A DNA stretch of 46,013 bases, filler included, from Catajapyx aquilonaris (Eukaryota): NCBI GenBank assembly GCA_000934665.2. It is 2 parts of 2 records of this genome, joined end to end, with 100 filler letters (N's around TTAATTAATTAA, not from the genome) between each part and the next. Parts side by side here need not be neighbours in the genome. Positions count along the whole stretch, not along the records: positions 1 to 22,980 come from JYFJ02005790.1; 1 more part is not named here. One strand, 5' to 3'. The position numbers were made by a program, and so were the translations under genes. Below, piece after piece: positions 6,027-37,773 of this stretch. The notes under the pieces were generated by a model, which ran no database searches, was not told the DNA's origin, and was given only the letters and a program-made list of their open reading frames with translations. The first letter of the stretch is position 1; the number at the start of each line of letters is the position of its first letter.

Positions 6027-6085
6027 CTGCACAAAACACACTTTGTAGTCACACCTGCTCCTTCAATCAAGAGTTATTAGCCTAC

Positions 6086-6362
6086 CTGCTGGAGATGGCC
6101 CCGGAATGGGCTGTCGGAGAGGTGGGCGTAAGAGCATGAATTCTCATGTGCCTCTGGAGGCTGACCTTCTTGTCGGCGCTGTAGGAGCAATGGGAGCAAC
6201 AGAACTGCTTGCCAGTCTTGTGCGCCTTGGCTGCGGGTTGGAGCTCGGAAGAAGAGGACGACGATGGTGCAACCGCCATTGTCTCTTCTCCTCCACACTC
6301 CTTCTCGCTGCTCTTGCTTTCCTCACTTTCCGAATGTTGATGTCGGTCGCAGTTATCCTTGC
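6086..6362 (-). CDS. ush: ush exon: C2H2 finger CSHCSYSADKKVSLQRHMRIH
   Basis: Acceptor ggcag| at 6363 (phase 1); donor ag|gtagg at 6085; SYSADKKVSLxRHMR matches Ush finger 2. Confidence 0.92.
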
Positions 6363-6983
6363 CTGCCATGGTCCAAAGGTATACTCACGTTACACTGTGA
6401 AACGGGTCCGCTATACACTACTAGTTTCGCTTACTTAATAACCCATCTGTTAAGATCCCATTTGTACATAAGTGGTACAGTTTTCCGTGATGATTACAGC
6501 AGCAGGAACAATGAAGTAATCAGTTCGAATAATTTTCATCGAGTGCGACTGTGTACCGGTATGTGGTAAATGCGCAAAACGAAATTGACAGAAACCACTA
6601 ATAACGTATGAAAAAAAATGCAACACAACTTGTTGAATTCTCAAATAATACTTTCCCCGAATTATGACCAGGTATAATTTTGAACTAAAACAGCCACGTT
6701 TAATAGCGCTCTCTGTCTGCACCGAATCTATCTATCATTCAGTAGGCGGTTATCTTGCATACAATATGCATTAAAAAAGCAGCGAGACCTCGATGCGCAC
6801 AAAATACATTTCGCCAACCACTAAAGTACCACAAGTCATGCCATGCCCCACCCTCGAAATCTCCAGCCACTTTTACGCGCCCAGCACAAAAAAAAAAAAA
6901 AAATCCAAAAAATTAATATGACACCGTAAAAGACGTAAAATAGTCAACTACTAGTTTGACCTTTCCATCTACATACATCCGTT

Positions 6984-7024
6984 CATCCATCCATCCACCC
7001 ATCCATCCATCCATCCATCCATCC
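6984..7024 (+). repeat. (CATC)n microsatellite
   Basis: About 10 near-perfect CATC units. Confidence 0.9.
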
Positions 7025-7690
7025 GATTAGGACCAGCGTGGAAACATAGAGCTGGATGCTTCCCCTCCCCCCTCTCCCCAACCCCTCCAACCCCCTAATC
7101 TGGCGGGCAGAGGCGATATCTTCATAGTAGGCTGAGCTCACAATACCAAATTAAACTATCGATTGGCGAACGGGAAGCGCTGTGTGCACTTCCCATTTAC
7201 AGCATTTGTCATTGAACACTATGGAGATTTGAAAGCTGTTAGGACGCGTCATTCACGCCGAGCGACAGCTCCATTCCACCCCCTCCATCCCCCTCCACCC
7301 ACCAGCCCCCCCACTCTTTGTATGCTTGGTTCGTGTTGTTCTCCGAGGCCTCATTAGCACCCGGCCGACAGACCAACCGACCACATGATTATTCCTCCTG
7401 AAGCCAACAATTGGCCCTCCGCGGCAACTCGCGCGTTCCTTCGCGCTTGCCCCGCGTTTTCTCGGCGGATTACCGCTATCCCTGGCACGCTGCCGTTCCA
7501 AATATTTCCGCCTTCTAAAGCGGTCGCCAAGTGATAACTGCTACAAATTTGGCTCGCCAATCGCTTCCTATTTGCCCCCATATACGTGGAGGCATATCGA
7601 GTACCCCGGTGCCAAATCAGTCGACTCAAAACCCCGCCCAATGATACGCATCCTGTTCTGACAATGCAGTTACCATTGTTGTGGACTTAC

Positions 7691-7804
7691 GTTTGACCGA
7701 AGGCTCTTCCTTGATCCTATGGGAGCAGTAGTACGTCTGATGGGCTTCCAGGGTGCTGGCCGAGCTGAATCGGATGCCGCAAGGCTCGCATACATACACC
7801 GGAC
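7691..7804 (-). CDS. ush: ush exon encoding CCHC finger 1 (PVYVCEPCGIRFSSASTLEAHQTYYCSHRIKEEPSVK)
   Basis: Not in the ORF track. Acceptor gattcttccttag| at 7805; donor c|gtaagt at 7690; 114 nt, phase 1-1. Translation matches Ush finger 1 (CxPCGIxFSSxSTLEAHQxYYC). Confidence 0.95.
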
Positions 7805-9088
7805 CTAAGGAAGAATCAGAAACAGTTCGGTACTATATGTTGTCCGATCTTATGTCTTGTGTACCCAGCCATTTTCTTTCTTCCCTAGCCCGAGTGGGGC
7901 AATTAAAGCAGGCGTGCTGAAGACTGTATCCAGTCACGTTCAGGATGACGGCCGTAATTGTTTCCCTGCCGCCATCACCTCATTAATTAGCTCTGTCTAA
8001 ACATGCAGTTACAGGCGGCGGTCTGGCCGTCCCCAGAGCGACTCAATGAGGACGCTATGGCCCGTTTCCGATCATTCGGCCACCAGGCCCAATATTTACA
8101 GGGTATGAGAAGACCACAGGTGTATAGGCTAACTTCAGTAGTCGGGGAGGGACATTCAAATTATGGCTGTGCATTTTGGGACATTTGGTTCGGAAATTTT
8201 ACGCAGGTTTATCAAATATGCTGGCATAGGATGTGGCCAATAGATATAATTGTAATTTGTGGCTCTATATACCTACTCAGAGAGGGGTTTCAGATGGCTA
8301 AGTTATGGCAAACTGGGTGAAGTTGATATGCGACAGATCGACCGCTATTGTGGTGTGTGAACACACCGCTGGCTCATTTCGTTGAATTTCTCCGTCGGAA
8401 ACTTTTGCGTTATGATCAGTGACAGAATGAAGCAGGCAGATTGTTGAAAATTCTTGGGTGGTAGATTAGTAGGATACTTTTTGTGCGCTTGGTGTACTCT
8501 ACAAAAAATCGGTTGAAATAAGTCTATAACCTCTAGAAAATCAGTAATGTGGGAACATTAGAGGCCTTTACCAAAGAGCGTTAAACGTCGCAAGTTATTC
8601 ACTCCAGCAAGTCAACTTTATCGTTTTATTGATTGCAACTGTCAGTAATTTCGACATCACAAACTGTGGGGCGGAAGGAAGTGTGGTGTGGAAACTCTCT
8701 GTCCAAATATACTAATGCAAGTTTGTTAATGTCAAGGAAACCAAACAATGACAATAGCACTCTTGCCAATAACTTCAGCCACTCACTAATTGAATAGGCC
8801 AATGCTGACAAAAGCCTCTTATACGCGAACAATTTCACGACAAATGAAACGCGCAATTTACATGCAAATCTTTAAAAATCTTGACCTAAGGGATATGTAT
8901 ATGCTCTACTCACCCAGCCTAATGTCCGCTATTCTGTGTAATGGCCGCATTTTGAATAGTGACTTCCTTGGCATAACCGGTACCCTCGACATATGCAATC
9001 AGAACTAGCCCGTGTCACTGCTGATGCGTAAATGGGCTCACTTTGAGAAGTAAAATTACAAGTTGCACGCATGAGATGAGACAGACTT

Positions 9089-12259: not shown

Positions 12260-12721
12260 CGCGCAGGGCATGTGGAAAAAGCTGCATGTAGTGTAAAAAG
12301 GTCAGGTCATGGGTGTTGGGGGTAGCCGTTGGGGTTGCGCTGGGAGTTGTGGTAGGAGTAGTGGTGGTAGGAGTAGTGGTAGGTGTGGGGGTGTGAATTG
12401 GTGTATGTATTGGAGTGTGGATAGGAGTGTGGACGGGAGTGTGGACCGGGGTGTGGGTGGGTGTATGGATGGGAGTGTGGGTGGGCGTATGAGTTGGGGT
12501 GTGCGTGGGAGTGTGGGTAGGCGTGTGAGTAGGAGTAGTCGGTGGTCGTGTGGGAGGGCGAGTCGGTGGTCGCACCCGCTCCTCCCCCTCTCCGTCTTCC
12601 TCTCCGTCCTCCTCTTCCTGATGCCTATGCTGCTCCTCCGTCTTCACGGCATCGCGGGATCCTTCTCCTCCTTCTCCTCCTCCCCCTCCTTCCACTTCTT
12701 CGTCGCCCCACAACTCTTCTC
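12260..12721 (-). CDS. ush: ush N-terminal coding exon (EELWGDEE..., acidic stretch, (TPxH)12 repeat); the upstream start exon is not securely identified
   Basis: Strong acceptor tttcattttgttgcag| at 12722; consensus donor g|gtgagt at 12259; phase 1-1, in frame with the finger-1 exon. Confidence 0.8.
12393..12536 (-). repeat. Coding tandem repeat, 12 x 12 nt, encoding TP[T/I/V]H
   Basis: Twelve units, each with a different DNA sequence; variation is concentrated at third codon positions. Confidence 0.9.
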
Positions 12722-14400
12722 CTGCAACAAAATGAAACGGAGAAAACAGTCACATTACACTCACTACACATTCCTCACTCCTGCTTCCTTCTTCCTACAC
12801 TCACTGTCATCAACCAGCCGCGGCATGTTCAAAGCAATAGTTAGCAACAACCCTCTGTGCCCACAACGTGGAAGAGGTGATTATGCGGCGGAATCTGTAT
12901 AACGGACCTGTAATGGCGGCCTCCGAAGATAGGCCGACCTAACAAGCTATTGGTGGCAACGACCCTGAGATTCATCCTGAGAGATAGGTCACCTATGCGC
13001 CTCTTTTGACTCACCTATTGCCGCCTTGCAAGGGGAAATCGACCAGTGCAATCAACTGCATCAGGTTTGACATGCAGTAGGGAAATGCAAAATAATTAAT
13101 GTACTGTACAGTACTGCACGGTATTTGCAAGGTATGTACAGGGTGATCAGTAACTCCCAGGTGTTGCTGCATGTAGGGCTTATTTGAAATTTCCACGACC
13201 AAAATAGGCTACTGAGGTCGGTAGTTAGTGCCACACCAATAAACTTAAACTGCAGTAGCTATTAACGGTCACGTCGAAGAAACCAGGCACATACCACTGT
13301 TAGCTGCGTGGCTTAATCATGGGGTGCACAGGCAATTAAGTTTTCATTCCGTTGTCTTTGGCGGTATAGGGAATATCCTGTCTGGCATCACTTCTTCACG
13401 GGGCGATAAGACAATTTCGATGTATACCAATTTCGAAGCAAGCACCTAACCCACAATGACACCTGAACTCCCCATAAGACGACGCGACGGGGACCTGACC
13501 AAACGAAGTCAATGAAAATAGAGCACGTGCTTTTGCCACCCCTGCTCATCGAGTTATTCCGGAAAGAAACACCCTACCACATCCGGAGATGCGGTTTTGA
13601 AACGTCGCACCATTCGCCCAGAACTTCAGTCGTTTCTGCCTATTGTCGACCGCGCCTCGGTGCTTCCGTGCTGCTCTAAGCGACCGCGCTATACTTCACC
13701 TGTTGCTGCATTGTGCTTCCGACCTCGCATCCTGCTGCTGGAGTCACACCGTATCGTATGCACAACTGACTACTGCAAGGTGATATGTATGAGGCAACAG
13801 TGCATATATGACACGTCCATGTCCAGCATTCGCATTGCTTACTGCTCCGAGAAAATGTGCAAGGTGGTGAAAGGCGTCTATTGGAATTTGCATCGTCATT
13901 ATTCGGCAATTCTCGGGAAAAAAACGGGTGCCTATCGCACAGTGTTACCAGCACACCAAGAATGAGATTTTCTTTCCAGAGTATGATTCCGGGGGGAGGG
14001 GGGGGGGGGCTTGAGCTATTTTACTGCTTACAGGCGATCACGATAGGGAATGAGTAATTGTACAAAACTGCCAATTGAATATTGCAGATATCTGCGTCCT
14101 GGTATTAACATTCGATACATATCTGTACTGAGGCACAGTCTGATCATGTTACTATAGAATTAACCAACCTCCGGCGAATTAAGTATTAAAAGGCTGGACA
14201 ATGACAAGGCTTCAAAATTCAAGATGCAACAATGCATATCGTGTACCAGCAAGTTGACTTAATCGGTACACCACTATAGTGCGCAATAGAGAAACGTCTC
14301 CCAAAGTTACCACTCTTTTTGTACACAAGTTGTACATTTATTATTTTGGGTAGTAGGGTGGGGGTGCGGAATGGAAGGTGGAGGTGGGGGTTTAGGTCCG

Positions 14401-14523
14401 TGTGGGAAGACAATTGGTCGTTAGTGCGGGCTGGCGAGATAAAGGCAGATAGTGCAATTCCGGAGACACGTAGGGAGATAAGGCCGGTTGGAAATAAGAA
14501 CAATACGTAGCGGCTTTGGATAA
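14401..14523. promoter_or_regulatory. Candidate enhancer: four co-oriented GATA sites plus a Su(H)-type site
   Basis: AGATAA 14437, AGATAG 14447, AGATAAG 14476, GGATAA 14518; TGTGGGAA 14401. Confidence 0.3.
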
Positions 14524-16197
14524 CGGCCGAAACACGAAGCCCGCAGCCCATCAGGCAAAAATAATTGTTTTGGCTAATTCCTATTGGGCGGGTCATGTTT
14601 TCCTTCACATCACGACCTTGGCCGGATCAACTCGGTCACAATGGACGCCTACGCAACCCTTTCCACCCACTTGTCCAGGTAAGGATTGCAATGGACACCA
14701 AGGAGCTAGACTAAACTATTTCAACAAAAAAAACACACACAGCCGGCATATCAATATTACACCGCAGTCCAAGATTAGACACAAAAGAGCGATTATTCGG
14801 AACCCCACAATATCCTTCACTTCCAATGAAATCTGCGAACAATGCCTGCCGTCGTAATTTCCCCATTCCCCCACGTCGCCCATGCCCCCCCCCCCCTCCC
14901 CCGCCTCCCCGCCTTCCCCACTTATACAACCTACATCTACAGTCTGGCTTCCATGCAGGCAGGGCAAAGCAACACACTTGTTGCACCTACTCCCTCCAAC
15001 AATTACGCTCCTCTCTCCGGATTCCAAAATACAAAGTCAGGTCCAGAGTGGAGGTTAGGTGCACAAAAGCAGATTCAATCGGAATATCAAGATCAATCAC
15101 CGGCGCCCAGATGCCGCGAAGTTCAAATACTTTACAATGGAATGTAACCTATAAATCTAGGGATGTCAAATTAGCAGCGGAAGTTGAAACGACCAGGAAT
15201 TTCTAATGGGATATTCAAATAACGTACCAGTGTAGGTATAGGCCGTTATGATCAACGAATTACCATTTTCTTATGAGAAGGGCTGCGATTTAGAGCAGGG
15301 TAAGTTTATTTTATATACCATAAATTTTAAATACCACAATATGGCCCGATTTTTTTTTTTAAATCGCTAAAAATATTTCACACACAGGTATGCCCAAAAC
15401 TACCCCCAACATTCGCCCTGATCCATACATTTCGAATGGCATTTCTTACTCCGAGCAGCAGAATGATGGTCACATATCAGACCAATATATCCCCAAGTCC
15501 CCTCTAAAATAGTTTTTCCCTCTTTCCCTACCCCCGAGTGTGAGAGCTTCGGAATCAGTGATGTAGTTGGCCCGGGTTGGTAAGGTAGTGAAGCGTGGGC
15601 AAGATAGTGCAACTAGGCAGAAAGATGGCGCTGGCAGCTAGCAAACCCCAGCTAGGTCACGAGCATGGAATAGCCCAAGGCCCCAGTTGTAATGGTGGGT
15701 TCCGCCAGCGCTAATCACTACCCTCTCACGTTATAGATTTTAATATTTGGGCAGATGGGACGGGTTGCAAGCCACGTTGAGCTCCGTCATTGATTTACTC
15801 CCCAGCCCTATCTCTCTCTTTTCTTTCTCCTTCTCTCTCTCTCTCTCCCTCTCTTTCTTCTCCCCCATCAGATTAGGTCCGGCTGCTTACCTCCCCTCAG
15901 ACCCCCTTCCTTCCACCCCCGTCTTAATTGTCCGCCCAAGATGAAAGCGATACAGGGTCCGCTCACGATCCTATCGGCGCGATTTGGGGAAATTAATGAA
16001 GGCTTTTCCGCCCCTCTTTTCCTCGCTCGTTCCTTCCTTCGCTCTCTCACTCCCAAAGTCCATCGATAACAAACCCCCCCCCCCCCCTCAAACCACTCTT
16101 CCTTCACTGCCCACCTTCATCGGCCACATCCAATACCGGCTTGCCTATATACCCTATTCACCCCCCAACCCGGTGGGAATCAGGTGTTGCGGCCACA

Positions 16198-16272
16198 AGG
16201 TCCCACCGAGAATCGAACTCGGACTGCTGGACCGGTTGAGGTCCAGAGTGCTACCCATTACACCATGAGACC
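16198..16272 (-). ncRNA. tRNA-Gln-derived element with an aberrant anticodon arm (probable SINE head or tRNA pseudogene)
   Basis: GGTCTCATGGTGTAATGGGTAGCACTCTGGACCTCAACCGGTCCAGCAGTCCGAGTTCGATTCTCGGTGGGACCT closely follows metazoan tRNA-Gln. Acceptor, D and T arms pair and the A/B boxes are intact; 10 nt lie between the anticodon stem halves; no nearby oligo-T terminator. Confidence 0.8.
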
Positions 16273-18110
16273 TATGGTGACGGTCGAGATTCCCACGAAA
16301 AAAAAAATATATATAGAGACCAGGCGTGGCACTCCCCCAATCTGCGAATTGAATCGGACACGACCGATGCACAAGAGGAGGGTGGGAGAAACAAAGGCGG
16401 AGTGATTTTGCAGCAGGGCACCACCTGAATCCCTGTCAGCCGGAGAAATATTATCAATTAGGCGGATGATTTAGCCGATAGGAAGCGGAATTAATGGCGG
16501 GCATTAGCAGCGCTCGGCCCAAACCAGTCGCCTGCAGCTGCTGCAGGCCCCTTCTTGGACCCGATGTTTGCTTGTGTATACACGACCCTCCGTGCAGATT
16601 TAATAAACGAAATATCCGGCAGACATACCACCTGGATTTCAACTGATGCAAATATTCCCGAGTAACCCTATAGGTATAACCGTCAATAGGACAGGACTTG
16701 CTGTTGGTCGAGTTTTGGTGGAGCCAACCCGCATCAAGGAGAGTTATCGTGGAAGGTGATGTAGAGAGGAGTGCACGATTCATCTTTGGCCTCCCCCATA
16801 CCCCCACCCAAGCATGTTCTGGGCTGGACCAACACGAAAGCCCAGATAACTGACTAACGGCCTTTACACCCAACCCCATTCTCTTTTCTTCACATGAGCT
16901 CTCTGCACCACTATACGCATCCATCTTGCTTGAGTATGAATCGCATGCAATCAAAGTGATGTTGGCTAGTTATTTTCTCAGGAGGAGCATGAATCATCCG
17001 TGGAGAGATGGTGAACCCCCCTATACACGACCGTCTTGCCATTACAAACAGTTTGGAGAGAAGGAGGTGGTGGTGGAGAAGGAGGAGGAGGAGAGAGGAG
17101 GGCAATTCGTTCCCAACCGAATGGGTTCCAAATGAGAGGAAATGGTGCCGTTGCCTTTAGCAGTATAGTGATCGATCGATGGATCGGACCTACTCTCCAC
17201 AATGGTCCAATTCCAGCACTATTTCACACTTGTTGCACTATTGTCTACATTCACAACAGAATTTTATTGTGCACTTTAGGTCATCAAGTCAACGGTTGTG
17301 CCTTCTAGATAGTCAAGAGCTCTTGATATATAGTCTAAGCTGTCGCTTTTTCGGAAATGCATTTTTATAAAGCCGTGTGCATATTTTCGTGACTTGGTGC
17401 AGGACGGTACTGTGCATTCAATGTCGGTACTTTGTGGCTAAGTAACTGATTTAAAAAGTTATTATAACCCAGGTGCAGGTAACCTCCGTTGGCAAAAATA
17501 TTATGTTCCTTATATACGCTTCTTGACTCTGTCTCTCTATTATAGTCTCCGAAACAGCCGTACTCTAATGTCAATATTCTCATTTCCATCGCCTCCAACC
17601 GTCGCCACCTTTATCATTTTGCGCTAACTTCGGGCAGAATGGAAACTGTTAACATTGTCACATTACTGGGATATTAAATGACTGCAAGAATTAATGCCTC
17701 ACTTGACATTTAAGTTAGCTACAGGAGTTATGGATTAGTGAAAAAGAAAACCACATGAACCGATGCGGGCGAATGCAAGGAAGCGTCAGTTTACCTCCGG
17801 TTTTCGATTTCAGGAGCCTGTCGGGGAAATTATGTTGTGCCCATACTGTGTACGGTTCCTAAGCCAAATATGGGTTCAAGACAACAGTACTGACCTCAGG
17901 TGCCAGTGGGTCAAAATGGCCACTCGCAGTCCTAAAAGCCGGAATGAATTCTTCTCCTCAACTTAATACTGTACTGTTTTAGAAGCTAATTTTTCGATAG
18001 CCCACAGGAAAGGAACTGCATAATTAATTAGCAGCTCAGTGTCAAAATTTTGCTAACTAGATCCTGCTGTATATCGCCCCGTGCTTTTCCCTCGTTTTAC
18101 TATGTAATAA

Positions 18111-18301
18111 GGATGTGCGGGGAAATGGCATAAGTCAAAAAAAAACTTTTTGACTTATGAGCTTCCCCCCCCCCCCCNCCCCCCCGAATCAGAGCATTCA
18201 CCTCTATTAATCCACCGCATGGATAATACTCGGATTAGGGGGAAAAAGAGCGTAAGTAAAAAAATTATTTTTTTGACTTATGCCCTTTTCCCCGCGCATC
18301 C
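18111..18301. mobile_element. MITE (~190 bp) with TIRs that are themselves hairpins
   Basis: GGATGTGCGGGGAAATGGCATAAGTCAAAAAA ... TTTTTTGACTTATGCCCTTTTCCCCGCGCATCC; internal CATAAGTCA..TGACTTATG palindromes. Confidence 0.7.
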
Positions 18302-21300
18302 GAGATATGTCCATGTCCCCTATGAGTATATGTCAAAATTTCACAATAACTTGTACTGCAAAAGTCTAATTGCGATGGACAATACGCGTAGTTCTATTTT
18401 GATAGGTCTACTTGTTTGGAACTGTACATGTTATAGATATTCTCAGCTATTCACGTAATGGAAGTCTACGAAACTTTTAAATACGATACTCCTTGAGCTA
18501 CATGTAGTGGCACTTGGTAAAGTAGTGCTGTTGAGTTACATCGGAACTGTCTATTTCTCCGTTGAAGGGAGGTAGGCACGTGATGGCCATCCATTAGCAC
18601 CACCCTCAACCATTCCAAAATCACTGTTGTGATCCCGTAAATGCGTGTATCTATTCCAACGCATCAAATATTGCGTAAGTGCAAACATCTCTATCAGCAG
18701 GTCTATCCAACTTAAACCAGAAAAAATGGACGAAGTCCTGTCCGTAAATGTCAACACGACGAGCGAATAATGTGTAATATTCAGCGACGGGAATATTTAC
18801 GCACCAGAAGTGCAATTAAATATGTAGTGAAAGCCATTCTACTATGGCATGCACTGCTACTTAAGTGCTGCAGCGCATGCAAACTACCGGTATCAAGCCT
18901 GGCCTACTATAAAGCTTCGGAAACTCTCTCTCTCTCTCTCTCTCCTCTCTTTTTGTAATGTTATTTTTATAAGCAGTTTCAAAACCCTGCAAAATGCCTA
19001 CGGCTATTTACAAATAAGCAGCTTAGTTCCACCGGTTTGGGTAATGCCGCTGACTAGGGTCAGGCAATTCCGATTTTGCTCCTACCTTGTAAACAAATCA
19101 TTCCCACATAATCTGTCCAATTCAACGTGGCAAATGTCTTCGATATTGCTAAAAACATTTAAAATTGCATAATTTTTGTCAAATTTATCCAGAATATTCC
19201 TAGTGTACGAGGTATCCTGATCATTATTGATCTTAATTATAGTGATACCTGTCCTTGAAAAAACTTACCCGTATATTGATACTACGAATCTAAGATCCGA
19301 TAAAGAACCTATAGGTGGGCCTTGGATCCTGTCAACTCCTGCTTTTACTCCCCCTAGGCAGTTTCTCATGACCAACATGCAATATTATAATGTCCTCACC
19401 ATTTGACATCAAATACCCGCTCAGAAATTATTATATATGCAAGACATGACAACTCCGCATCAGAGGGCCTTATCGAGTTATCGAGTTTGGGTTGAGGCGG
19501 TGGGTGGTATTAAGATATGGCGGTGGGTGAGTGCCTTTTAAGCTTGAACCAGTTATATCTTCATATAAGGCTTGGGAGCCCGGGTGCGAATCTTATTGAA
19601 ACTCTGAAGACTACATTATTTTGCCATAATCAAGATAACACCAATGTGTAATTTAAAAACAAGAATAATAGCAATTGATAACAACGCCCAAGTCCGCGCA
19701 ACACTTGGCGATACCTCGATAAGAAATCATCCTGCCAGATAATCGCGTGAATAAAAATGCGAATGTTCAAGACAATAATTAGCACACGACTAATTGTCGA
19801 AACTCGGTCTTTATATATGCATCCAAAAGACTGCTCACTTGCATTTTTTTTTGTTATGGTGAACATACTGGAAACTGACCAGTACAAGTATAATAAACAA
19901 AGGGGCTTTGACTTCTGCAGTTGGACTACCTTCCAAGTGAACCTCCATAACTTATAAACCTGATAAACTTGAGTGCCCTCGAGCAAGTTATATTGCGGGT
20001 AAAATTCAAGCAAATCTGCCAATCAGCTGCAGATTTTTTTTAAAAGCCTGAACTCTTCTCTAACGAATGTCAAAATAACCATTTTCCGATAAACTGTCCC
20101 ATATCTAAGCGATAAACCCTCTTGGATTGCAGTCATATGCAGCGTGTATTGTTTCTTCTTGGCGCATCTTCGCTTCCTTAAAAAAGCAACCGACATATTA
20201 AAAATAACTGATATTATTTTTAGTTATTTAACTTTCACAATATGCTCATTTTTAAATAGCCTACTTTTTGACTCGATCCCAAAGTTAAGGATGCCTACAA
20301 AAATCCAGGCAATAAAAGCTAACTTGAAAATAGTGACACACCCACAGATTTGCATACCGGTATATGTAGTCCACCAAAACATGAGTATGTGAGAATGAAA
20401 ACGCCCTAAGTTCTAAACTCAACTTAGTCATTCTCCTCAACATCATAATTTGAATATGAAAAATTGAATTTCTTTACTTTCCAAGTGCAAAACTTTCCCA
20501 AGAAAATTCATTATCGCAGTTTGAATCCTCGAAATTCAGACCAGAAAATATATGTGTCAGGCTAATAGCACACACCTCTAAGCCTGGAACAACAAGACCC
20601 TTTCAGCTGTTGTTTCCTTATTTGTCGCTCCCTTTATATGGCCAACTGTCTACTCTTTCTCATTTCTGGTACGTTACTTTGCGCCACAAAAACATAATGA
20701 ATTATGCAGGTTTTCAAGTGTATTTAAGTGTATGTCTTGGATATCAAATTCGCCGGTAAGTACAGAACAGACAGGCTACGCAATTTATGAGTTAGTTTCA
20801 TATGGTATAGAAAATTGAGTCCGGGCTGTATGGATTGTTCGCAACGGCGAAGGCAGCAATATTCTGTGATATGTTGACATAAGCAAAAAAAAAAAAAAAT
20901 TGGCGCCAACTAGTGATGCCAACAGAACTGTAATCTGTTGGCATCCCATGATTACAATCTGGCCTCAATAGGTATAGCCACCAAGTGTCGAATACCTGAC
21001 TTGGGCCGCGAAAATTAAATCGCGGATAAAAATGGCGGATGCAGCTGCTGAAGCTAGGCGCTCATCTGATACGCTTTATTTATTTTTTACTCATATTTAG
21101 AGTGCGATTTTCGGCAATGCATTGAATGTTCTGGGATTCGCAAGGAATGTGTATTAGGAAATGCAAAGAGAAGGGTCTGTGACAATCTTTGCTGCTGTAG
21201 AGAACTGGTAATTTTCTTGTCCTGCTGAGACAAAATGTCCATTTAAATGGACATCCGGAAAAAAAATCGCTGAATGGGCTGTAATTTTTCTTTAAGTGCA

Positions 21301-21952
21301 TGTATCTACCTATACACCCACAAGGAAGTGTACTTTGAACTACAGTTCAGTTTTAAACTCTAGAATAGCGAGGTACTATGCTAGGAGGTACTAAGAGAAA
21401 GAGCAATCCCCATAACTGAAGTTTTGACCTTGAAAAAAATTGCAATATATCTTGAATTGTATTCTGAGACGAATTGCTACCACGAATTCCACAAATGAAT
21501 GTAAAAAAACATTGTGTGGAGGAGAGAGCACTATGTTAGTGATCCATTAAGTGGCATTTACATTTTCAGCTTTCATCCGTTCTGCTTTTGTAGCAGCAAT
21601 TGTGGCCTGGTATTCTCATTGGTTGTTCATCATTATTTTAGAACTATAATTTTTTTCACGTTTCTCATTGGGTAAATGTTCAGAAAATGCAATAGGAACT
21701 GACATTGCGTTACTCAATTCTTCTCGGGTCTCAGGAAGATACAACTAGCCATAATGTTGCAATATGAGTACATAGTTACACTAGGCGCATAGAAAGCTAT
21801 TCGGACTCTATACCCTGGAGCCTGGACCTATCGGGTGAAAACCAGTCAATGGCCCCGTGTTGCTGACGGGATATGTTTGGTAATAGAAACTAACGTCACT
21901 CACCCTGTATGCAACGTCTGGCTTTAGAGGCTTCCATGGCCTTTGGATCATG

Positions 21953-22041
21953 CCTTACCTTGCCTAGACGCAATCTGCGTCTGGTTACTAGGTCACAGGA
22001 TACTTACCTGAAAAGAGAAAATAGCAACATTGCATTATTAG
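21953..22041 (-). other. Candidate recursive splice site (ratchet point) with a 49-nt cryptic RP-exon (22007-21959)
   Basis: Branch point CTAAT (22041-22037), tract TATTTTCTCTTTTCAG directly followed by GTAAGTAT (AG|GT at 22008/22007), then a second donor AAG|GTAAGG at 21958. Confidence 0.65.
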
Positions 22042-22159
22042 CGTCTTGCCACACTCACATAACTGTCACATGCCACTCGTTCCCTCTTGTAAATTACTCG
22101 TAAACACTACACGTGTGATCCCTTAGTGTAGAAAATAAAAAAGACAATAATGGCGGGTT

Positions 22160-22456
22160 TGTGGTTGTCTTACCAGCCTCGGAGTCAGTCAAAACTACTT
22201 TCGACATCGCTCTAGTGGAAAAAAGAGCAATAAAAACCGTCCATTAAGAAACCTGCACACAGCTAAAACTGCTGGTACGGAAAACAAATTTGTTGTTCTT
22301 CTTCTTCTTGTTTATTTTCTTCAACTTCACTTCACGATAAGTGATTTTGTCCTTCGATAACGTACAGATATGCCCGAAGCTTATCCCTTCACCTGAAATA
22401 TTTCCTGAGCCCATGGACAGATTGTGAACTATAATAAGGTACCCAACACGGATAAG
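22160..22456. promoter_or_regulatory. Candidate GATA/RUNX regulatory module
   Basis: TGTGGTT 22160; GATA cores at 22335, 22355, 22366, 22380 and 22450. Confidence 0.3.
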
Positions 22457-22980
22457 ACTTTGCGTACTCGTTTACAAACTCAAGTGATGTAACCGAAAAC
22501 AATATTTCAGCCTAAGACTTGACAAGCATCTGCTTACGGCCTCCATGCCTGATCCGGTGGAACCCGCTGGCCCCAAGCGATCATAAATTAGCACAAGTTG
22601 ACTTTTTGCGGCGATTAAACACGGAAAACTGATCTCAAGTCTACCCTAGCGGCGAGAAACTAATGTTTGCCAATCGGCCAGTTTACAAAGCCTGGTTTAA
22701 GTATTAAAGGTATGTTCACAAGCTCGTAAGAACAGACTTTTCCGCGCGAATTGGCTTCTCGCTCTCGTTCACGCTCCCGCTCCGACTGATTCTCGCGAGC
22801 TAAAGGCCGGTATCCACGTACAAGAATCTCGCATACGAGCCTTGCAGCAGAAAGAATTCCGAATTTCGGTTCTTAAGGCCGGTATCACGGTCTTAGAAGG
22901 ATAGGTCGGGAAACTCCCCGCCATCTTGCGATCCGTTACTCAATCCCGCCGTGGCGCTGACTGGAGGTCGCCATGATGTG

Positions 22981-23080
22981 NNNNNNNNNNNNNNNNNNNN
23001 NNNNNNNNNNNNNNNNNNNNNNNNTTAATTAATTAANNNNNNNNNNNNNNNNNNNNNNNNNNNNNNNNNNNNNNNNNNNN
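22981..23080. other. Assembly gap with artificial six-frame-stop linker
   Basis: 44 N + TTAATTAATTAA (23025-23036) + 44 N. Confidence 0.97.
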
Positions 23081-24263
23081 GATAATCTTAATGGAAACTT
23101 TTTATCACATCCTGTGTATAACCCCACCACTCCATTTTTTGGGGGTGTCCCAATATTTTCAGATCAGGGCAAGTATAAGTTGACATGAAAATTTTGTGCG
23201 CTTATTAAAGTAATATAGCAGGATAAAACCCAGTATGATAAACGGCTTCTCATGCTCACCTAAACCTAAAACGTGACTTACATTGAACAACCTAATCTGT
23301 AATGTCTGCATTTCAGTGGTTATCAAATGCACTGTTGACTTATGCTGACACCACCACTCGGTCGAATCTCGAATATTGTAATGAGCATAACAAGCACAGA
23401 CATTATGGTGGATGAGTTAAGAAATAATATTTTACAACACTGACACAAGTCAGTGTTTAGAATAAGCTGCTCATCAAATTGAAAAAAATTCATTGATCTT
23501 GTGTAAGCTATACCTTAGCAAAGGCTACGGCTTGGTTATTGCATGCCTGCTCTGTGGTCAAAAGCTTTTGAGCAAAAGGGCCATTTCAGGGTTCTCTTAA
23601 AAAGTTAGAAAAACCTGGATTAAATCACTGTTTTTATATATCAGGCAAGAACCAGTACAATCAATACATAAGGAATGAACATAGTCTGGGCGGAGAGATA
23701 TTAATAGCCGGAGAGGATGGCTAATGTGACAGGTAGTGCATTCAACCATAGAATAGTAGACTGCAGGTGTGACATGCGTTTCTTTGTTAGATTTCCATCG
23801 TTAATATTGTTAACACACATTGTTCCTCATTGTGTCGTCGGTACTGTATTCTTTCCCTGCATGCTCTGTAGTGGTACACACTACAGCTTCACTGCCTTGG
23901 GTCCTGGAGTGAACTCGGCCACCCCTTCCTCTGGGCAAACCCAACCGTCATTGTAGTCTGCTTGCATGACGGCTTCCATGATTAATTCGTGGCTTCATGC
24001 CTCCCTTGCTTACAATATTTATAGGCTGCAATAAAGGCTATACAGTATATCTGCCAACACCACGAATTGAGTTGGAAATCATAGGTAATATGCGGTGTGT
24101 GGTGTGTCGGAGAGGAGGCATTACCGGCTCGGCATTACGTGTACATTATAATCAAACAAACCACGGTTTGTCATAAGTTACCTCCAAGAGCTCGATACAA
24201 ATATGTTTGTTAAAATGTTAACCCTCTTTGTTTAAGATGAATAAGCTGACTAACCTACGTATA

Positions 24264-24594
24264 TAGGGTGTTTCAACTTTTTTGTCCGAACAGTTATCGG
24301 AAAATTGCACGTAGCTGCTACTTTGTAAGCAGTGACTTGCAACCGGTGATATGTCGGAGGAATGGGGAATGGGGAAAAAGAGGGTCACACATCCCATGGC
24401 ATGTGGTGACCCTCTTTTTTCCAGGCTTGACCCTTAATTTTTAGCGGGAAGCACGTATGCCACTTCAACCTACGATTCGCAGGGAATATTCCCCGTTCCT
24501 CCGAAAAATCACCGTTTGCAAGTCACTGCTTACAAAGCAGCAGCTACGTGCAATTTTCCGATAACTGTTCGGACAAAAAAGTTGAAACACCCTG
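24264..24594. mobile_element. Tc1/mariner-type MITE with ~105-bp TIRs
   Basis: TA|(T)AGGGTGTTTCAACTTTTTTGTCCG ... CGGACAAAAAAGTTGAAACACCCTG|TA; a central hairpin is also present. Confidence 0.85.
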
Positions 24595-24598
24595 TACA

Positions 24599-25267
24599 CA
24601 GGGTGGACCAACTTCAAGTGTCGTTTTATAACGGCTATTAATAGAAGCGCTTTACGCTTGACGTAGAAGCGACGTGTAAAATGTCCCACTTCGGCGCCAT
24701 CGAAAATATTAGCTGCCAATATTAGCGTACATATAATGAACCTGCTGCAACGAGTGCAACCACATGCGGCACCAATGCCAATCCGGCAGTCCGCAAAGAA
24801 GGCATTTCACCCAGGCGCGCATCGCAGGTCATGTGCGTGTGCGTGTGTACCTCCTAGCAGCAGGGTTGATTACATCGCATCCCGGCAATAACAGGGGCAC
24901 AAGTCCAACAATGACGATTTTGACTTACTACTAGAGCAGGGTCCATGACTGCGTGCACATTCAGAATGCATGTTATGATTTTTAAAAATTAATAATTAAT
25001 AATTCTGATTATTCGAATGCTGCATCGATACCTGATTTATGATAACACTATACCAACACTATACAACTTTCAAAGTGCTCTCCTGTGAAATTGACTTTTT
25101 GGACTTGTGCCCCTGTTATTGCCGGGGTGCGACATGTGTGCTGCTATTGGCAGGTAATATTTTCGATCGCGCCGAAGTGGGACATTTTACACGTCGCTGC
25201 TACGTCATCGCAAAATCACTGCTATTAATCGCCGTTATAAAACGACACTTGAAGTTGGTCCACCCTG
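24599..25267. mobile_element. Tc1/mariner-type MITE with long, interrupted TIRs
   Basis: CAGGGTGGACCAACTTCAAGTG ... CACTTGAAGTTGGTCCACCCTG|TA; ~120-bp outer IR plus an inner IR (24872-24922 vs 25085-25137). Confidence 0.85.
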
Positions 25268-25948
25268 TATAGCAAGATTGCAGAGCGTATTGTATGCGAT
25301 TTCTTATAAGTTATTTCAAAATTGTAATATCCAGTCACTTTTATTCCCATTCAGCCCATTTGTTATTAATTTTCTCTTATAAGTTAAGTCCACCCTAGCA
25401 GAGTACTAGACAGTAAACAAGCGAAGTTAATATGGTACCACATGCCTTTTAATTATTGTAAGATTTGGATAATTTTATATTACGTGCTGACCGCGAGAAT
25501 TAAAACTGCAGAAATAGCAGGAATCCCTAAGCGGCTACAAAGATATTGTGAAACTCCCAATCCGCTCGTGTCCAAATGATCCAGATTCAGGAGAAACTGT
25601 GCCAAGAAAACAGTTGTCGGTCCCCTTGTTTACACTCGTGAACGGAAGTAATACTGAAATTACACAGGATATATGCACACAGAAGCGATTCCAAGACAAC
25701 GAACAGTCCAACCATTTCACGCTTTTGTGGCTTGGGGTTGATACATTCCTACCGTTCCGACGAGAATCAAATTGAATGGGACACGACAGAGTGCGGTTGG
25801 GCGGGGACTGCGAGGTTGCGTCTCTCCGCCAATATTTCATCATTAGAATTGGACTCTGCAGCCAAATGAACAAATCCCCACGTGCTGCTTTCCAAATTGG
25901 CTGAGACAAATGCAGGGCGGATGACATGAGAGTGAGAGATAAATAGAA

Positions 25949-26603: not shown

Positions 26604-29600
26604 TATTGGGCGGGAGGACTGGCTGAGAAAATTTATATATTTTGTAGATAAATATATCAAATCTCAGAAGTATACATGTGCATATAAAATCGGGTTTATA
26701 ACAGGATCACTGGGAGACCAGCCAGGTACAAAAGAGGCCGTCCCTTCCATTTGCATTTTAGAAGGGGGAAATTTTACCAGTACTGTACGCTCTTTGGCAA
26801 CGCTGCCAAACTAGCTAAACAAGCGGCCAGATTGTATCAGGCAAAGTTGGTTACGTTTTGTCCTTGTGCAGCCAAGTTCCAACTTTGAGACGAAATGTCT
26901 GAGGATTTTGCCAGGTGCCTCTTTGCCATTTCATTTATTTTCTTTCTTTCTAGAAGGATGCAAAAGTCTGTGTTTGCACAGCCAGGGGAACTAAGCCTCG
27001 GCGTGTTTCTGTACAGAATTACTTAGTGTAGGCCTACTGCGGGCAGTGAATGCGAACATGCTCTTTTTGTAACCACGTAGCACGCTTTTGTTACCCGTCG
27101 ATAAGTCTAGAGGTTTGTATAGCTGTTGTTCCAGCGCAGCGGATCCTGTGAGGTGGAATGTAGGTCCGTCTAGAGCACTTATAACTTCAGTAATGAGTCC
27201 TACTCATAAGTTCTTGATTCTTGTATCACGCTTGCTAAAGCGCAAGGTTGTCAAGTGTAAGCCTCTATTGAGCCTTTTATGGAAGAAGTTTGGCTGGAGG
27301 CAAGCAATTTTTCGCCAGCACCGTAGAGTGGGGGTGTTATGTTATATCCGTGACAAAAATCGAGTCTTCCAAATTACGTACCGTATCGAAATATTGAATG
27401 CAACTTTTTCCCGGAAAATGCTATCCAACCGAGCCCTAACCCGAAACGTATGGCCCCATTTGGCCATAAGGCCCAATGGTGAACCAATAGATTCGGGTCG
27501 ATTTTCGATGATCTTTTTTTCGCCCCAAAGTTCAACAATGCGACTCTTTGATCCAAAATGGTGTACTGCGGTGCCGCAAGGAATGCCATGACTTTTAGAA
27601 ATACTCTATATGGAGGGTATTTCATAATGATTCTGCAAATGCTTGCTTACTCGAGGACTGTATCATTTGGTCTGTTACATGGCAGCATCCGAGCTTTAAT
27701 ATTCCCACTGCGCTGTATAATTCTGTGGAATAAATGCTACTAAATTGAAATCATGCTACGAAGCCTATTGGCCCTTAGGCCTATTTATGCCAATTTTGGC
27801 TAGGGAAGCGGGCGTGTGCCAGCAGCCAGGTAGACAATCCCCTAAGGGCTTTAGGTATAGGCAGCATATTGCGAAGCGGTAGAGGAAAGCCTTGGTGCGC
27901 ATCAAAGAAGCAGTACTGGACCCGTGAAAAATCGGCCTGGATTAACCTCCCCCACTCTCCTCTGCTTCTCTCGGCCTCTCGCCCTTTACCAACTCGGTAA
28001 CGTTCCCACATTCTGCTGCTAAACGATTTCTCTTTGTGATGGAAGCTTTCTTTTTGCCTCTTTTTTTTCTTCTTCTTCCTACGCCTCCTGCTGCAGCGCC
28101 GACGCCAAGTGTTTCCTCCTTCCCAGTTTCTCTACCTTGGGGACTTTTTTTTTCCATGCCAAGAAAAGAAACGCTTGATTGCTGAAATAAGGTCACGTGC
28201 GTCACGTTCCTGCCCGATCATATTCGAGAAGCATTGGGCTAAATCCAGCCGAAATGTGCCTCCAGGCGGAATGTGGGTCTACCACCCGACAAATGAACAC
28301 AGCAGTGTTGAATTCGAAGGCGGCCAGGATATTAATGTTGTTACCTTCCAATTTTTACCATTGGAGCCACAGGCGACTGACCGGAGATCTCGATAGTTCA
28401 AGTGCGATCCAATATGTTGTGTAGACAGTACCTTTCTCGCTCACATAAGTTATGACATATGATGTGCAACAGAAGTTTCTTTTAATCTGCCATTGAAGTT
28501 CTTATAGCATTAATGTTGCCTAGATGGCCTAGATGATGTCAGTTTTCAAGATTGTTCTGGAAGGAAATGGCCAAAAACTTATGTTTTACGCAAGTATATA
28601 AAAAGGGATGAAAAATGTCTAGAACTTGAGAGAATTGTTAGGATTCGACAAAGAATGCTGCTCCTCACGTCCGACGAATAGTATGTCCTTATCACCTTTG
28701 CACTCGGAGACATCGTGAATCCGGATGGAGCATCTTCTTTCTAAGCTGTTCCGAGCTGTAACAGTCCATTGTGATTGTGGAAAATCCATATATCCTGTCT
28801 CTCCCCCCCTCCCTCTGTTTTGCCATGATCATCAGTCAACTGCGCTAGGCCATTTCCTCTTGTCCCTAGTCGTTGGACATGTGGTGGTATTGATTTGTAA
28901 ACATCTTTCCAGATAGGCGCGAGATTTCTTGGCACAGAGCAAATGAAGCATCGACCTAGGGAATTCTTCTTGCCAGCCAGCTTGTCTTTCTAAACTGCTT
29001 CACCCGCAGGAATAGACATATCACTAAGCTGCAAGTTACATCTCAGATGTGCCAGTATTGTTTCAAGTACGTATATGGTCGCTGGTAGGTCGAAACGTTG
29101 GTACCTCTCTAGTGCAGTGCAACGACCTGCTTTTTATTGTTTTAGTTTTTTTATTATTTTCATTGCTCGCCAAAAAATTGGACCTGACCCGTTTCAAATA
29201 GGCCTATTGCAAGGGTCACCCAGTTTTTAAAAATGTTACCCCGTGATAGGGCCCTGGGGGCCCTCTTAGGGGGGGGGGGTGGAACACCACCATTCCTTCA
29301 ATTTTCTATGGATTTATCTTCATTCACCATACAGGGATATATAGGCCCCCGTATAGGCCCGGGCGCTTCTAACATGGTCTAAGTTTTTATCGGACTTCAA
29401 TCGATGGCGTATAGGAGCAATGGCTCTCCCCGAATATCCCGTAAGGGGTGGCAAATAGTATTACCAAAAAAATCAGTTATACAGAGTTTACAGACACCCA
29501 ATCAATGTAAATTATAGACATTTCTACCATCACATCAGTACCTGAAAAAAATGTGTGCAATTATAATAACTTAGAGTCCACCAGTATGTAATTTGCTACG

Positions 29601-31701: not shown

Positions 31702-32084
31702 GCCTTAATTGTCTTCACTAAGGCGTGGGACGTGAAAATTCAACTTTTCGAAGCTAGTGTAACCTAACCTAACCTAACCTACCCTACCCTACCCTACCCT
31801 ACCCTACCCTACCCTACCCTACCCTACCCTACCTTACCTAACTAACCTAGGCTGAGAAAAATGGACTTTTGGGAAACCCTACAAATGAAAATAGTGGGGA
31901 CATGTCCCCACTAATTTAGACATGTCCCCACTGTAATAGTACACATCGCGTCTGTGAAACTGTGGGGACCCACAAATGTCCCCGCAATTCGAACTGTGGG
32001 GACAGACGTCCCCACAGCTACAGTGTCCCCACAGTTAAACTCAATACGTAGGTTTTCGTCCTCAGAGCTAATTGAAGACAGGAC
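31702..32084. mobile_element. Non-autonomous element flanked by (CA)n, carrying telomere-like (AACCT)4(ACCCT)10 and GTGGGGAC/GTCCCCAC repeats
   Basis: Imperfect TIRs TGTCTTCA.. (31710) / ..TGAAGACA (32073-32080); CA tracts on both sides; 22-bp palindrome at 31892-31913. Confidence 0.6.
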
Positions 32085-33198
32085 CACACATACACACGCT
32101 GGCGTTCCCTGGCAACTAACAAGGGAATGACCAAGGGTCGTCCCCTCCGATTTGGCTGAAACTCGCTTGGGGGGTAAATAATGTGTCATAGACACAGTAG
32201 TGAAAGTCCTAAACGGAAATATTCAGTCGTTTCCGAGGTATGATTGACAGAAACATCCGAATTTTGGCCGCGAGTATGTATACGGGTCGGGTGGGAAAGG
32301 GACAAGTGCAAGTCCCCTGTCTTTTTCCGATCCACTACAGGCCTACACCATCCCCCACCACATTTTTCGTTTTCCATTCTTTCGTTGCTCCAGTATTTTA
32401 AGGGCGATAGCCCTTAAGTAAGACCGTAGCATAGATTTCAACAATGTTTCAACAATGAATTTTTCCTACTTCTTCTTGTTGTTACGTTTTTTTTTATTCG
32501 CCCTAACTCAAGTTCTGCTGTAGGTAGAGCTTCCAAATTTTGAACACAGATGCCCACCGTCGTGACTTGATTTCCTACCATTTACACGTTTACTTAATTC
32601 CTCTTCAAAACGCCGCAAAAAATTTAAAGCCACCAAAAAATACGTTTTCATTTTTTGGCTCAATAACTATTCGGAATTTGGTTCCTTCTTCAACGGGTCG
32701 AAGGTGCAGCAGGACGGTGCGGATCTATGCTCAAAATCTCACAGTTCCCACGGCTACAGGATTGGAGCTGTGATTTTTTTACCTCGTATTTTTTCTGTCA
32801 TTACTTCATTTGTTCATGACCCCATCACCTAGAAACGTCAGTTGTTGTTTACCACCTCATATATTGTTGTGGGTCAAAGGAGGACAAGATGAGCGACGCC
32901 GAGTCGTACTGTCGCCGTTGGGTTTTCACCCAACTTTAATGTACCTTTGTGTTTTTTGTATCGTCTGGTACAGTTCTCAATGTTCCGTATATTTTAGCGT
33001 ATAGGCTATTTCATAATAATCAAATCAGACTAACCGTTGGCTGGTAGCACTCCTCTTTCGTTTTTTTACGACTGTCTCTGTGCAAATAATTTTAGGGACT
33101 TCTAAGCGACGAAAATTGTCTCCAATGCATTCATAGTGCAGACTGTATAGTGTAGACACTGTAGAGCATAAGTTATGTGTACTGTCAAAAAAGAACTG

Positions 33199-33917
33199 AA
33201 ATTAGATCAAAAACTTTCCCTTCAGTAAAAAAAAGATAAGTAAGACCTCCGCGGCAGAATAAAAGTACTGAAACAAGGCAGGCGCACGTAAGACCTTCAC
33301 CAATTGATTTAAGCTGTACCATAGGTCTTACTCAAGCAATTCTCAAGTACGGTACGGAACGGCTCGTAAAATGACTGCAGCAAACTACTCAGAGCAGTAG
33401 GTAGGATTTTATTATGAAAAGAAAAAAATGGGGGAAAAACTAAACTCATCCTAACAGACTTGGTCCAATCGAAAAAGACCCTCTAAAATTCACCAATTAA
33501 CGTTTATATGTGAAAAATTAAGCATTAGTTAAAATCAGCATCTAAAAGAGGTGACGATTCTGCATGAATGTTTCATGGCAATAATTCGCACTAATCGCAT
33601 AGAAATTCAATGTTCTTAATATTGAAGTTCCTAATTTCATAAAACACTAATATGGAGTGGCTCATGGAAAACTAATACTGCCAATAAGAGCTAAGTTAGA
33701 AGTAACTAGTAGTACAACAGAAATTCCAAAGATTTGTTTCAGAAAGGAGACTTCATGAGCATCAGTGAATTGGAAATTGCTTGAGTAAGACCTATGGTAC
33801 AGCTTAAATCAATTGGTGAAGGTCTTACGTGCGCCTGCCTTGTTTCAGTACTTTTATTCTGCCGCGGAGGTCTTACTTATCTTTTTTTTACTGAAGGGAA
33901 AGTTTTTGATCTAATTT
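33199..33917. mobile_element. Young MITE with perfect 143-bp inverted arms
   Basis: 33199-33341 is the exact reverse complement of 33775-33917; three GTAAGACCT motifs per arm. Confidence 0.9.
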
Positions 33918-34148
33918 ATTATGCGACCAACTAAAAGCTGATTTTTCGCCCTCCTGTCAACTGCGAATAAAGGTCATTTGCAACACAAATAATTGCGTAA
34001 TAGGAACTTCTTCAGACTTATCAGTATGTATGATATATCATAATCTCTCCTGCCAAACCGTTCCTATTACGCAATTTTTGGTACAATAATGATCTTTAGT
34101 CGCAGTTGACAGAAGCGAGAGAAAGCAGTTTTTAGATGGTCACATAAT
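33918..34148. mobile_element. Older foldback MITE
   Basis: ATTATGCGACCAACTAAAAGCTG ... CAGTTTTTAGATGGTCACATAAT with diverged inverted arms reaching TTGCGTAATAGGAAC / GTTCCTATTACGCAA. Confidence 0.7.
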
Positions 34149-35177
34149 AAATACCGGTGCAACGAAAAAATGGAAAACGACAAATGGGGTGGGGGATGGT
34201 GTATAGGCCTGTATGGGATCGGAAAAAAAACAGGGGACGGGGGGACACTACCACCTTTTGCCTAGCACTTGTCCCTTCCCCGCCCGACCCGTATACATAT
34301 ACGCGCGGCGAAAATTCGGATGTTTCTGTCGATCATACCTGGGAAACGATTGAACATTGCCGTTTAGGACTTTCACTACTGTGTTTATGACATATTATTT
34401 ACCCCTCAAGCGAGTTTCAGCCAAATCGGAGGGGACGACTCTTGGTCATTCCCTTGTAAGTAAACATTTAGGGACTGCTAATAATTGTTATGTCCACCAC
34501 TGTACTGTACTGCAGGCCTACTGTACTCACTCAGATATAGTCGAATATAGCAACTGCTTTATAATTGGGCTCCTCGATCGGGTCGCAAAAACGACAAAAA
34601 TACAACGACTTTGGGCGAATCTGACGATATAACTAAAAGGGCCCCACAATTTGGAACACACTGTTACAGGCAAAGGTGACTTTTTTCATTTTATACAGCC
34701 CCCCGCATTTATGTTTTTTTTTGTTTTTTCAGGTGTCCCGACTCCCGACAAAAACGATGAATAGAGGTTATACTGTATCTTAATCATGTTCAGTCCTGTT
34801 TTTGAAATATGTGAGTGTGGGCATTAGTTCCGAATGTAGTTGTCAGAGGTGATTAGCCGCAGCAGCTGACAAGAAGCAGGGCAGTCCCAACTTGTTGCTG
34901 TAATGCAGGATTTAATACACTAAAAGCCATTTGGTGGGGAAGACCAGGGACCTTTTAGTCGCTGTAGCTGCTGCACTGAGGTTTTATGAAGTGGAACGTG
35001 AAGAATCTCCACATGAACTTATTTTATTGCATGGCTCAGGATTCCTTGTATTTGGTATATATAAGTCAGCAAGTTCATTGGCGGTCAGAGATTTAAGTTA
35101 GTTGCATATATGAGTTTTCCTTTCATTTGGATTTTTTGTACAAGGGGTAAATAAATTACGTCACATAAATTATTATA

Positions 35178-37650: not shown

Positions 37651-37773
37651 CTTGGAGACAATAAGGCACATCCCTGTGGCCATTCTCCATTTTGTTGAGA
37701 AGTGTTGGACAAATTGCATTCCGTTTGAACACATCCAAGAAAAGCATCTTCATTAATACTGTGAATATTATAT
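37651..37773 (-). other. Isolated candidate exon (123 nt) of unknown gene
   Basis: Acceptor ttttggaattttcacag| and strong donor caag|gtgagt; open in two frames; no recognisable domain. Confidence 0.25.

Follow-up and report, generated by a model that had tools for sequence, protein, structure and literature searches.

The ush locus of Catajapyx aquilonaris

The window analysed here, i.e. the whole stretch of 46,013 nucleotides of DNA from Catajapyx aquilonaris, carries on its minus strand a gene which tblastn and protein searches identify as ush/FOG. The parts of the gene that matter for the following are:

2757–7832, minus strand: downstream ush coding exons with FOG-type and C2H2 zinc fingers, located by tblastn and protein searches
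12260–12721, minus strand: ush exon 2, with a length of 462 nt and phase 1 at both ends, acceptor AG at 12723–12722 and donor GT at 12259

The assignment of the host gene to ush/FOG on the minus strand, already made in the original prediction, is borne out by the FOG-type CCHC and C2H2 zinc fingers, which follow each other in ush order, and by 169 proteins that match at E ≤ 1e-10. The best matches are named ush, and nearly all of the named ones are annotated as 'zinc finger protein ush'. Hereby covered are both insects and crustaceans: best-block identity to the named proteins amounts to 55–61% and is equal for polyneopteran insects and malacostracan crustaceans, and with the zinc-finger queries no protein exceeded 61% identity at more than 80% query coverage. 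These equal identities thus point to an arthropod to which no annotated species in the database is closely related. One arthropod-type ush protein among the sequences (P0121) is filed under the moss Sphagnum compactum and probably derives from contaminating animal DNA.

Exon 2 opens with G/EELWGDEE, and its first in-frame ATG is found only near the exon end. Since there is no start codon before the conserved opening motif, an upstream exon must exist. An acidic-W motif, exemplified by GEEEEWGSE, REDEEWSDSE and GDDDWDSDGE, is present within the first 150 residues of 55 of the 131 ush-type proteins obtained in the searches, where it stands straight after variable short leaders, many of which are 2–25 residues long in other species; 24 of the 131 proteins start with M[SP]RRKQ. 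The opening of exon 2 matches this acidic-W junction and exon 2 is therefore the attachment point of alternative first exons, as in the ush proteins of insects and crustaceans. Consequently, what lies upstream of 12722 is the intron between the alternative first exons and the common exon. For fly ush, Lenz et al. 2021 (PMC7891773) describe, in the part of the article used here, at least five mRNAs to which alternative promoters give rise, with N-termini of which 7 and 14 residues are unique; variants of this kind would fit the G/EELWGDEE junction in Catajapyx. When exon 2 itself was used as protein query, 14 matches were obtained, all of them low-complexity. The exon contains a 12-nt tandem repeat array (12345–12615, minus strand) of (T-P-T-H)n-like low complexity, in which three frames are open.

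A fused acceptor and donor site

Within the intron upstream of exon 2, on the sense strand of ush, the following elements adjoin each other:

22041–22037, minus strand: candidate branch point CTAAT, branch A at 22038 (position -31)
22008–22030, minus strand: pyrimidine tract and acceptor CAG, 16 of 20 pyrimidines, TT at -5/-6
22000–22007, minus strand: candidate ratchet-point donor GTAAGTAT, abutting the acceptor AG and matching MAG/GTRAGT at 9 of 9 positions

On the minus strand the CAG ends at 22008 and GTAAGTAT starts at 22007, i.e. acceptor and donor are directly fused (site 22008/22007). Thirteen of the 16 pyrimidines at -23 to -4 are T, and the acceptor AG ending at 22008 is preceded by an AG-free zone of 35 nt, with no AG between CTAAT and the acceptor AG. 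The donor GTAAGTAT agrees with the U1-complement consensus in 11 of 11 positions. It had been claimed that a CTAAT at about -31 and an AG-free pyrimidine tract lead into CAG/GTAAGTAT with a full 11-nt U1 match, and each of these elements is indeed found on the minus strand at the coordinates listed above.

The sequence CAGGTAAGT occurs once in the whole window, namely at site 22008/22007, which lies outside every internal repeat of the window. No Rfam family was matched at the site, and a metagenome scan with the 23-nt junction sequence returned no matches. Elsewhere in the ush intron, a tRNA-like element is located at 16197–16273 (minus strand; Rfam tRNA, 51.3 bits), for which ARAGORN reports an irregular anticodon loop (caac) and which may be a pseudo-tRNA or a SINE head. 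The putative intron also harbours a telomere-like pentamer array (31760–31849; CCTAC/TAACC units, 15 copies). Long inverted repeats of up to 168 nt and 88–100% complementarity are found at 24259–25271, 32115–34461 and 43002–45048; they may be foldback elements or assembly artefacts.

Downstream of the fused site, a short interval is closed by a second donor and followed by a third one:

21959–22007, minus strand: candidate cryptic RS-exon of 49 nt, a length not divisible by 3, with stop codons in each frame
21953–21961, minus strand: RS-exon donor AAG/GTAAGG, G of GT at 21958, 8 of 9 consensus positions
21898–21906, minus strand: third strong donor AGG/GTGAGT, G of GT at 21903, 8 of 9 consensus positions
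21966–21982, minus strand: 7-bp stem AGACGCA, loop GAT, TGCGTCT, inside the RS-exon

The third donor lies 55 nt beyond the second and would close an alternative RS-exon of 104 nt. If strong donors are defined as those with at least 8 of the 9 positions of MAG/GTRAGT, then 3 of the 15 strong minus-strand donors of the 46 kb (22007, 21958 and 21903) fall within 105 nt. A Poisson estimate from the donor counts of the window yields about 4e-4 for two extra donors within this distance. By consensus counts the ratchet-point donor (9/9) exceeds the RS-exon donor (8/9), with the reservation that after a first splicing step positions -3 to -1 come from the upstream exon.

The second donor 49 nt downstream, the stops in all three frames and the 7-bp stem all belong to the features originally described, and all are present. 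The all-frame stops are unremarkable, because GTAAGT itself supplies a TAA, and they add little. Inclusion of the 49 nt after a phase-1 first exon would lead to a stop within 7 codons. As to the stem, a 51-nt core folds with -16 kcal/mol and z = -2.10, a result that 5 of 200 shuffles equal, and in this MFE fold the second donor AAG/GTAAGG has 7 of its 9 nt paired. In a context of 111 nt the fold is not significant (z = -0.08), and the hairpin was for this reason dropped as an independent signal. The evidence for the hairpin is marginal.

Occurrence of the motif against chance

The sequence YYYYYYNCAGGTRAGT is seen once in the window, both strands taken together, against a shuffle expectation of 0.04, with at least one occurrence in 4 of 100 shuffles. 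The window contains 334 AGGT sites, 160 on the minus and 174 on the plus strand. A donor of at least 8/11 combined with at least 14/20 pyrimidines is reached by only two of them, site 22008/22007 and an antisense site at 14678; if TT at -5/-6 and a downstream donor are required as well, site 22008/22007 is left alone. Likewise, no other of the 334 unites a donor of 11/11 with 16/20 pyrimidines, a TT at -5/-6 and 35 nt free of AG. In 3000 simulated windows, generated as first-order Markov sequences and hence simpler than real intron DNA, the basic motif occurred with a mean of 0.086 per window, which dropped to 0.019 when TT at -5/-6 was required. The motif with TT and a strong donor 20–110 nt downstream was found in none of the 3000.

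The best decoy is the antisense site at 14678 (CCAG/GTAAGG, 14654–14688, plus strand), with a 10/11 donor and 16/20 pyrimidines. It has neither TT at -5/-6 nor a strong donor within 100 nt, and it shows that good junction motifs arise by chance. The motif at 22008/22007 is real and non-random.

Candidate upstream exon and extent of the intron

The distance from 22007 to the acceptor at 12722 is 9,286 nt, in line with the figure of about 9.3 kb given at the outset. Two features farther upstream are relevant for the extent of the intron:

22981–23080, no strand: filler or linker of 100 nt, lying about 1 kb upstream and made up of 44 N, TTAATTAATTAA and again 44 N
37651–37753, minus strand: candidate upstream first or 5' exon, ATG at 37753, reading MKMLFLDVFKRNAICPTLLNKMENGHRDVPYCLQ/G, donor AAG/GTGAGT with G of GT at 37650

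The block at 22981–23080 looks like an artificial six-frame-stop linker that joins two contigs. The window is therefore not one contiguous DNA, and distances further upstream are uncertain. The certainly contiguous part (12722–22980) measures only about 10.3 kb, less than the smallest recursive intron of the fly (11,341 bp).

An MSRRKQ first exon was not found in the window; if the species has one, it would be located in a gap or at more than 33 kb from exon 2 in the upstream direction, and the intron would exceed 33 kb. An exon with the FOG repression motif was not found on the minus strand of the window either. The sequence NPKPQKR at 25739 was considered as a partial exon of this type and rejected, as it has neither a Met nor a donor. 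When the N-terminal 260 residues of 25 proteins were compared by tblastn with the part of the window upstream of 8000, only proline-rich or acidic low-complexity matches resulted.

Apart from the candidate ratchet-point donor, the minus strand has a single 9/9 donor, AAG/GTGAGT at 37650. The candidate exon 37651–37753 that it closes is in phase 1 with exon 2, although phase agreement alone is a 1-in-3 event. It forms part of an exon-like unit (37651–37775, minus strand) with an acceptor-like TTTTCACAG/ and ATGs at 37753, 37747 and 37690. If this exon is real, the intron would measure about 24.9 kb, divided into about 15.6 and about 9.3 kb and excluding the true length of the linker; if it is used, the donor regenerated after a first step would be AAG/GTAAGT. 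A weak second sense-strand junction, TTTTTTTCAG/GTACTG (29518–29551, minus strand), is located 7.5 kb upstream of the main site and has TT at -5/-6 and a poor donor.

Interpretation as a ratchet point

Ratchet points of the fly are tandem acceptor/donor motifs inside long introns and, according to the sections of Joseph et al. 2021 (PMC8605326) on which we draw, depend on a short cryptic RS-exon (about 50 nt) that is followed by a donor of its own. Intronic RS-exons are described there as little conserved and mostly out of frame, and as skipped in every case, their inclusion being harmful; skipping occurs because the regenerated ratchet-point donor outcompetes the RS-exon donor. In Bx and kuz, a weakened ratchet-point donor was shown there to bring about inclusion of the RS-exon. 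The preprint of Duff et al. (10.1101/006163) reports TT at -5/-6 in 196 of the 197 ratchet points of the fly, a length of 11,341–132,736 bp for recursive introns and of 2,596–63,580 bp for their segments. Recursive segments are typically about 9–15 kb long and first introns are enriched, as stated in the portion of Pai et al. 2018 (PMC6110457) used here.

Site 22008/22007 presents the same set of sequence features, i.e. CAG abutting GTAAGTAT, a pyrimidine tract with TT, and a 49-nt out-of-frame candidate exon with its donor. We consider it reasonably likely that the long 5' intron of ush has here a ratchet point of the Drosophila type, together with a cryptic RS-exon that is out of frame, and this intron of Catajapyx is probably removed in steps, as in fly ush. 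The ratchet-point reading would account for the acceptor signals, the abutting donor, the 49-nt interval, the extra decoy donor, the orientation, the 9,286-nt segment and the fly precedent. The segment is within the range of the fly segments quoted from the preprint and close to the chunks of about 9–15 kb. Counted against a ratchet point are the low frequency of recursive splicing, which the same preprint text puts at only 6% of fly introns above the minimum size, as well as the raised CpG o/e and the in-phase ATG at 22035, both of which fit a promoter or first exon.

For the ratchet point we infer every RNA-level step of the following course. A further-upstream first exon would be spliced to the AG at 22008, whereby the acceptor would be recognized by exon definition, with U1 bound at the downstream donor(s) 21958 and/or 21903. 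The last bases of the upstream exon would now precede GTAAGTAT and a 5' splice site would be regenerated. This regenerated site would outcompete the weaker, possibly hairpin-masked RS-exon donor and would be joined to the acceptor at 12722. Accordingly staged, the 49-nt RS-exon would never reach the mRNA and the last 9.3 kb would leave as a separate lariat.

The features of the site have to be weighed against a different use as the end of an alternative first exon. Transcription would then start within 22050–22980, the exon would end in ...TCAG at 22008 with its donor at 22007, the protein would begin MQCCYFLFS-GEELWGDEE and the acceptor features would be fortuitous. The original prediction had pointed to the ATG as a caveat, and from the ATG at 22035–22033 an open frame indeed leads in phase 1 into the exon that begins at 12721 (MQCCYFLFS-GEELW). 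Moreover, exon 2 needs an upstream ATG, a first exon would likewise end in MAG/GTRAGT, and ush genes use alternative promoters or first exons with short unique N-termini (PMC7891773, in the part cited above). A CpG o/e of 0.95–1.22 over 22001–23250, compared to a median of 0.76, provides a weak promoter hint. However, an open in-phase ATG is found upstream of 28% of the minus-strand positions (9254/33100) and the ATG at 22035 thus carries little weight, while a CpG o/e of at least 0.95 is reached in 34 of about 182 windows. For the leader MQCCYFLFS, no homology to any N-terminus was found by the tblastn search with the 25 proteins, and it resembles a translated pyrimidine tract. Leaders of similar appearance, e.g. 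MLLYFCFL-G, are seen in three unnamed predicted ush proteins (P0002, P0050 and P0066), in which the predicted ORFs probably extend into the common exon's acceptor tract. A first exon would furthermore leave unexplained the pyrimidine tract with TT at -5/-6, the CTAAT at -31 and the AG-free zone, as well as two further strong donors within 105 nt. All in all, we regard this use of the site as rather improbable.

An expressed cassette exon would rely on an acceptor and donors identical to those of a ratchet point, and the two differ in the fate of the 49-nt (or 104-nt) interval, which some ush mRNAs would retain, be it as a 5'UTR exon, as a regulatory exon or as a poison exon that breaks the frame; GTAAGT would allow optional re-splicing, cf. 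the Ubx microexons. The second donor is strong (8/9), a phase-1 inclusion would run into the early stop mentioned above, and expressed RS-exons do exist in flies, where the relevant section of PMC8605326 counts fewer than 50 of them versus more than 500 intronic ratchet points. On the other hand, the length of 49 nt, the stops in all frames and, by consensus count, the 9/9 ratchet-point donor versus the 8/9 RS-exon donor resemble the skipped cryptic exons of the fly, none of the proteins found by our searches contains a matching insertion, and regulated poison use is without precedent in the literature passages drawn on here. We consider a cassette exon improbable. The original prediction of recursive splicing with a poison option is accordingly retained in part: the gene, the ratchet-point features, the rarity and the fly ush precedent speak for recursive splicing, whereas the poison/NMD option is unsupported, given that fly intronic RS-exons are always skipped and harmful when included. 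It could finally be that a fortuitous AG/GT in AT-rich intronic DNA is ignored by the spliceosome. The antisense site of fair quality at 14678, the very many windows scanned, among which some chance matches are expected, and the mere 6% of long fly introns that are recursive could be quoted in its favor. The composite motif was absent from the 3000 simulated windows, however, three strong donors are clustered at the site, and the site has the sense orientation, occupies the intron where it would be expected and belongs to a gene whose fly counterpart has a known ratchet point; coincidence is in our view improbable as well.

Returning to the ratchet point, a more far-reaching proposal would be that recursive splicing of the ush 5' intron is ancestral and predates the split from Diptera, and that the hairpin, with 7 of the 9 nt of the RS-exon donor paired, may allow this donor first to serve exon definition and afterwards to be outcompeted by the regenerated donor. 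We regard this proposal as speculative and on the whole unlikely.

Comparison with known recursive splice sites

To our knowledge, genome-wide maps of recursive splicing exist almost exclusively for Drosophila and a small number of vertebrates. Fly ratchet points are further marked by a strongly conserved acceptor/donor motif between poorly conserved flanks and, in RNA, by exon-to-ratchet-point junction reads, sawtooth coverage and recursive lariats. Taken alone, site 22008/22007 would be a predicted instance of a known mechanism, and its interest stems mainly from the match to the published ratchet point of fly ush. If confirmed, it would mean that the fly-type mechanism, consisting of a ratchet point and a skipped RS-exon, works in a distant long-intron arthropod, and that the same developmental regulator (ush/FOG) is recursively spliced there and in flies. 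On this concrete pair of loci one could then study whether ratchet points are passed on by descent or arise anew when introns lengthen; were the ancestral reading true, ush would be among the deepest conserved hosts of recursive splicing. From a practical point of view, the site and its decoy donors can mislead gene predictors into false exons or false N-termini such as MQCCYFLFS.

The S1 table of Pai 2018 (PMC6110457), in the entries used here, lists for D. melanogaster ush (FBgn0003963) a recursive site at 2L:508865 within the intron 2L:491358-525390 (release-5 coordinates). The site carries the entries method 'both', in_duff 1 and high_confidence 1, with junction reads of 336, 249, 140 and 0, and the in_duff flag denotes that it is also contained in Duff et al. 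2015. The identity of FBgn0003963 as u-shaped is confirmed by two papers. According to the same table, the ratchet-point motif reads ...TTTCCAG/GTTGGT... and is located in a 34-kb 5' intron, which presumably corresponds to the intron in front of the common ush exon. Both sites thus belong to the same gene family and to the same 5' region of the gene, and a pyrimidine tract with TT at -5/-6 followed by CAG/GT interrupts a long intron in the fly and what is probably one in Catajapyx. The donor is GTTGGT in the fly and the consensus GTAAGT in Catajapyx, and sequence similarity ends at the motif. Moreover, the fly site has junction reads and a sawtooth, whereas the Catajapyx site is predicted from its sequence.

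Compared to the fly ratchet points of kuz, Bx and Ubx-RP, the site shares the juxtaposition of acceptor and donor and the context of a developmental regulator with a putative long intron. It also shares an out-of-frame candidate RS-exon of about 50 nt with its own donor and a ratchet-point donor that is, by consensus count, at least as strong. It differs in belonging to a non-dipteran arthropod, whose ush is 55–61% identical in the best block to named proteins, in having two downstream donors instead of one and a small hairpin over the RS-exon donor, and in being predicted from DNA sequence.

A predicted recursive splice site outside the Diptera is that of locust NPF1, located in the 230-kb intron 2 and supported by U2AF65 RIP, as reported in the part of Wang et al. 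2022 (PMC8892266) considered here. Like the site in Catajapyx, it comes from a non-dipteran arthropod, was predicted with the fly motif and combines a branch point, a poly-T/C tract and a nearby hairpin. Unlike the Catajapyx site it has the RIP support, and gene and intron size differ. With the alternative first exons of fly ush, as far as the cited part of PMC7891773 describes them, the region in front of 22008 has in common a short ATG-containing leader that could be joined to the common exon in phase. In contrast to these, the leader is devoid of the FOG repression motif and is accompanied by the full acceptor signals which a first exon does not need.
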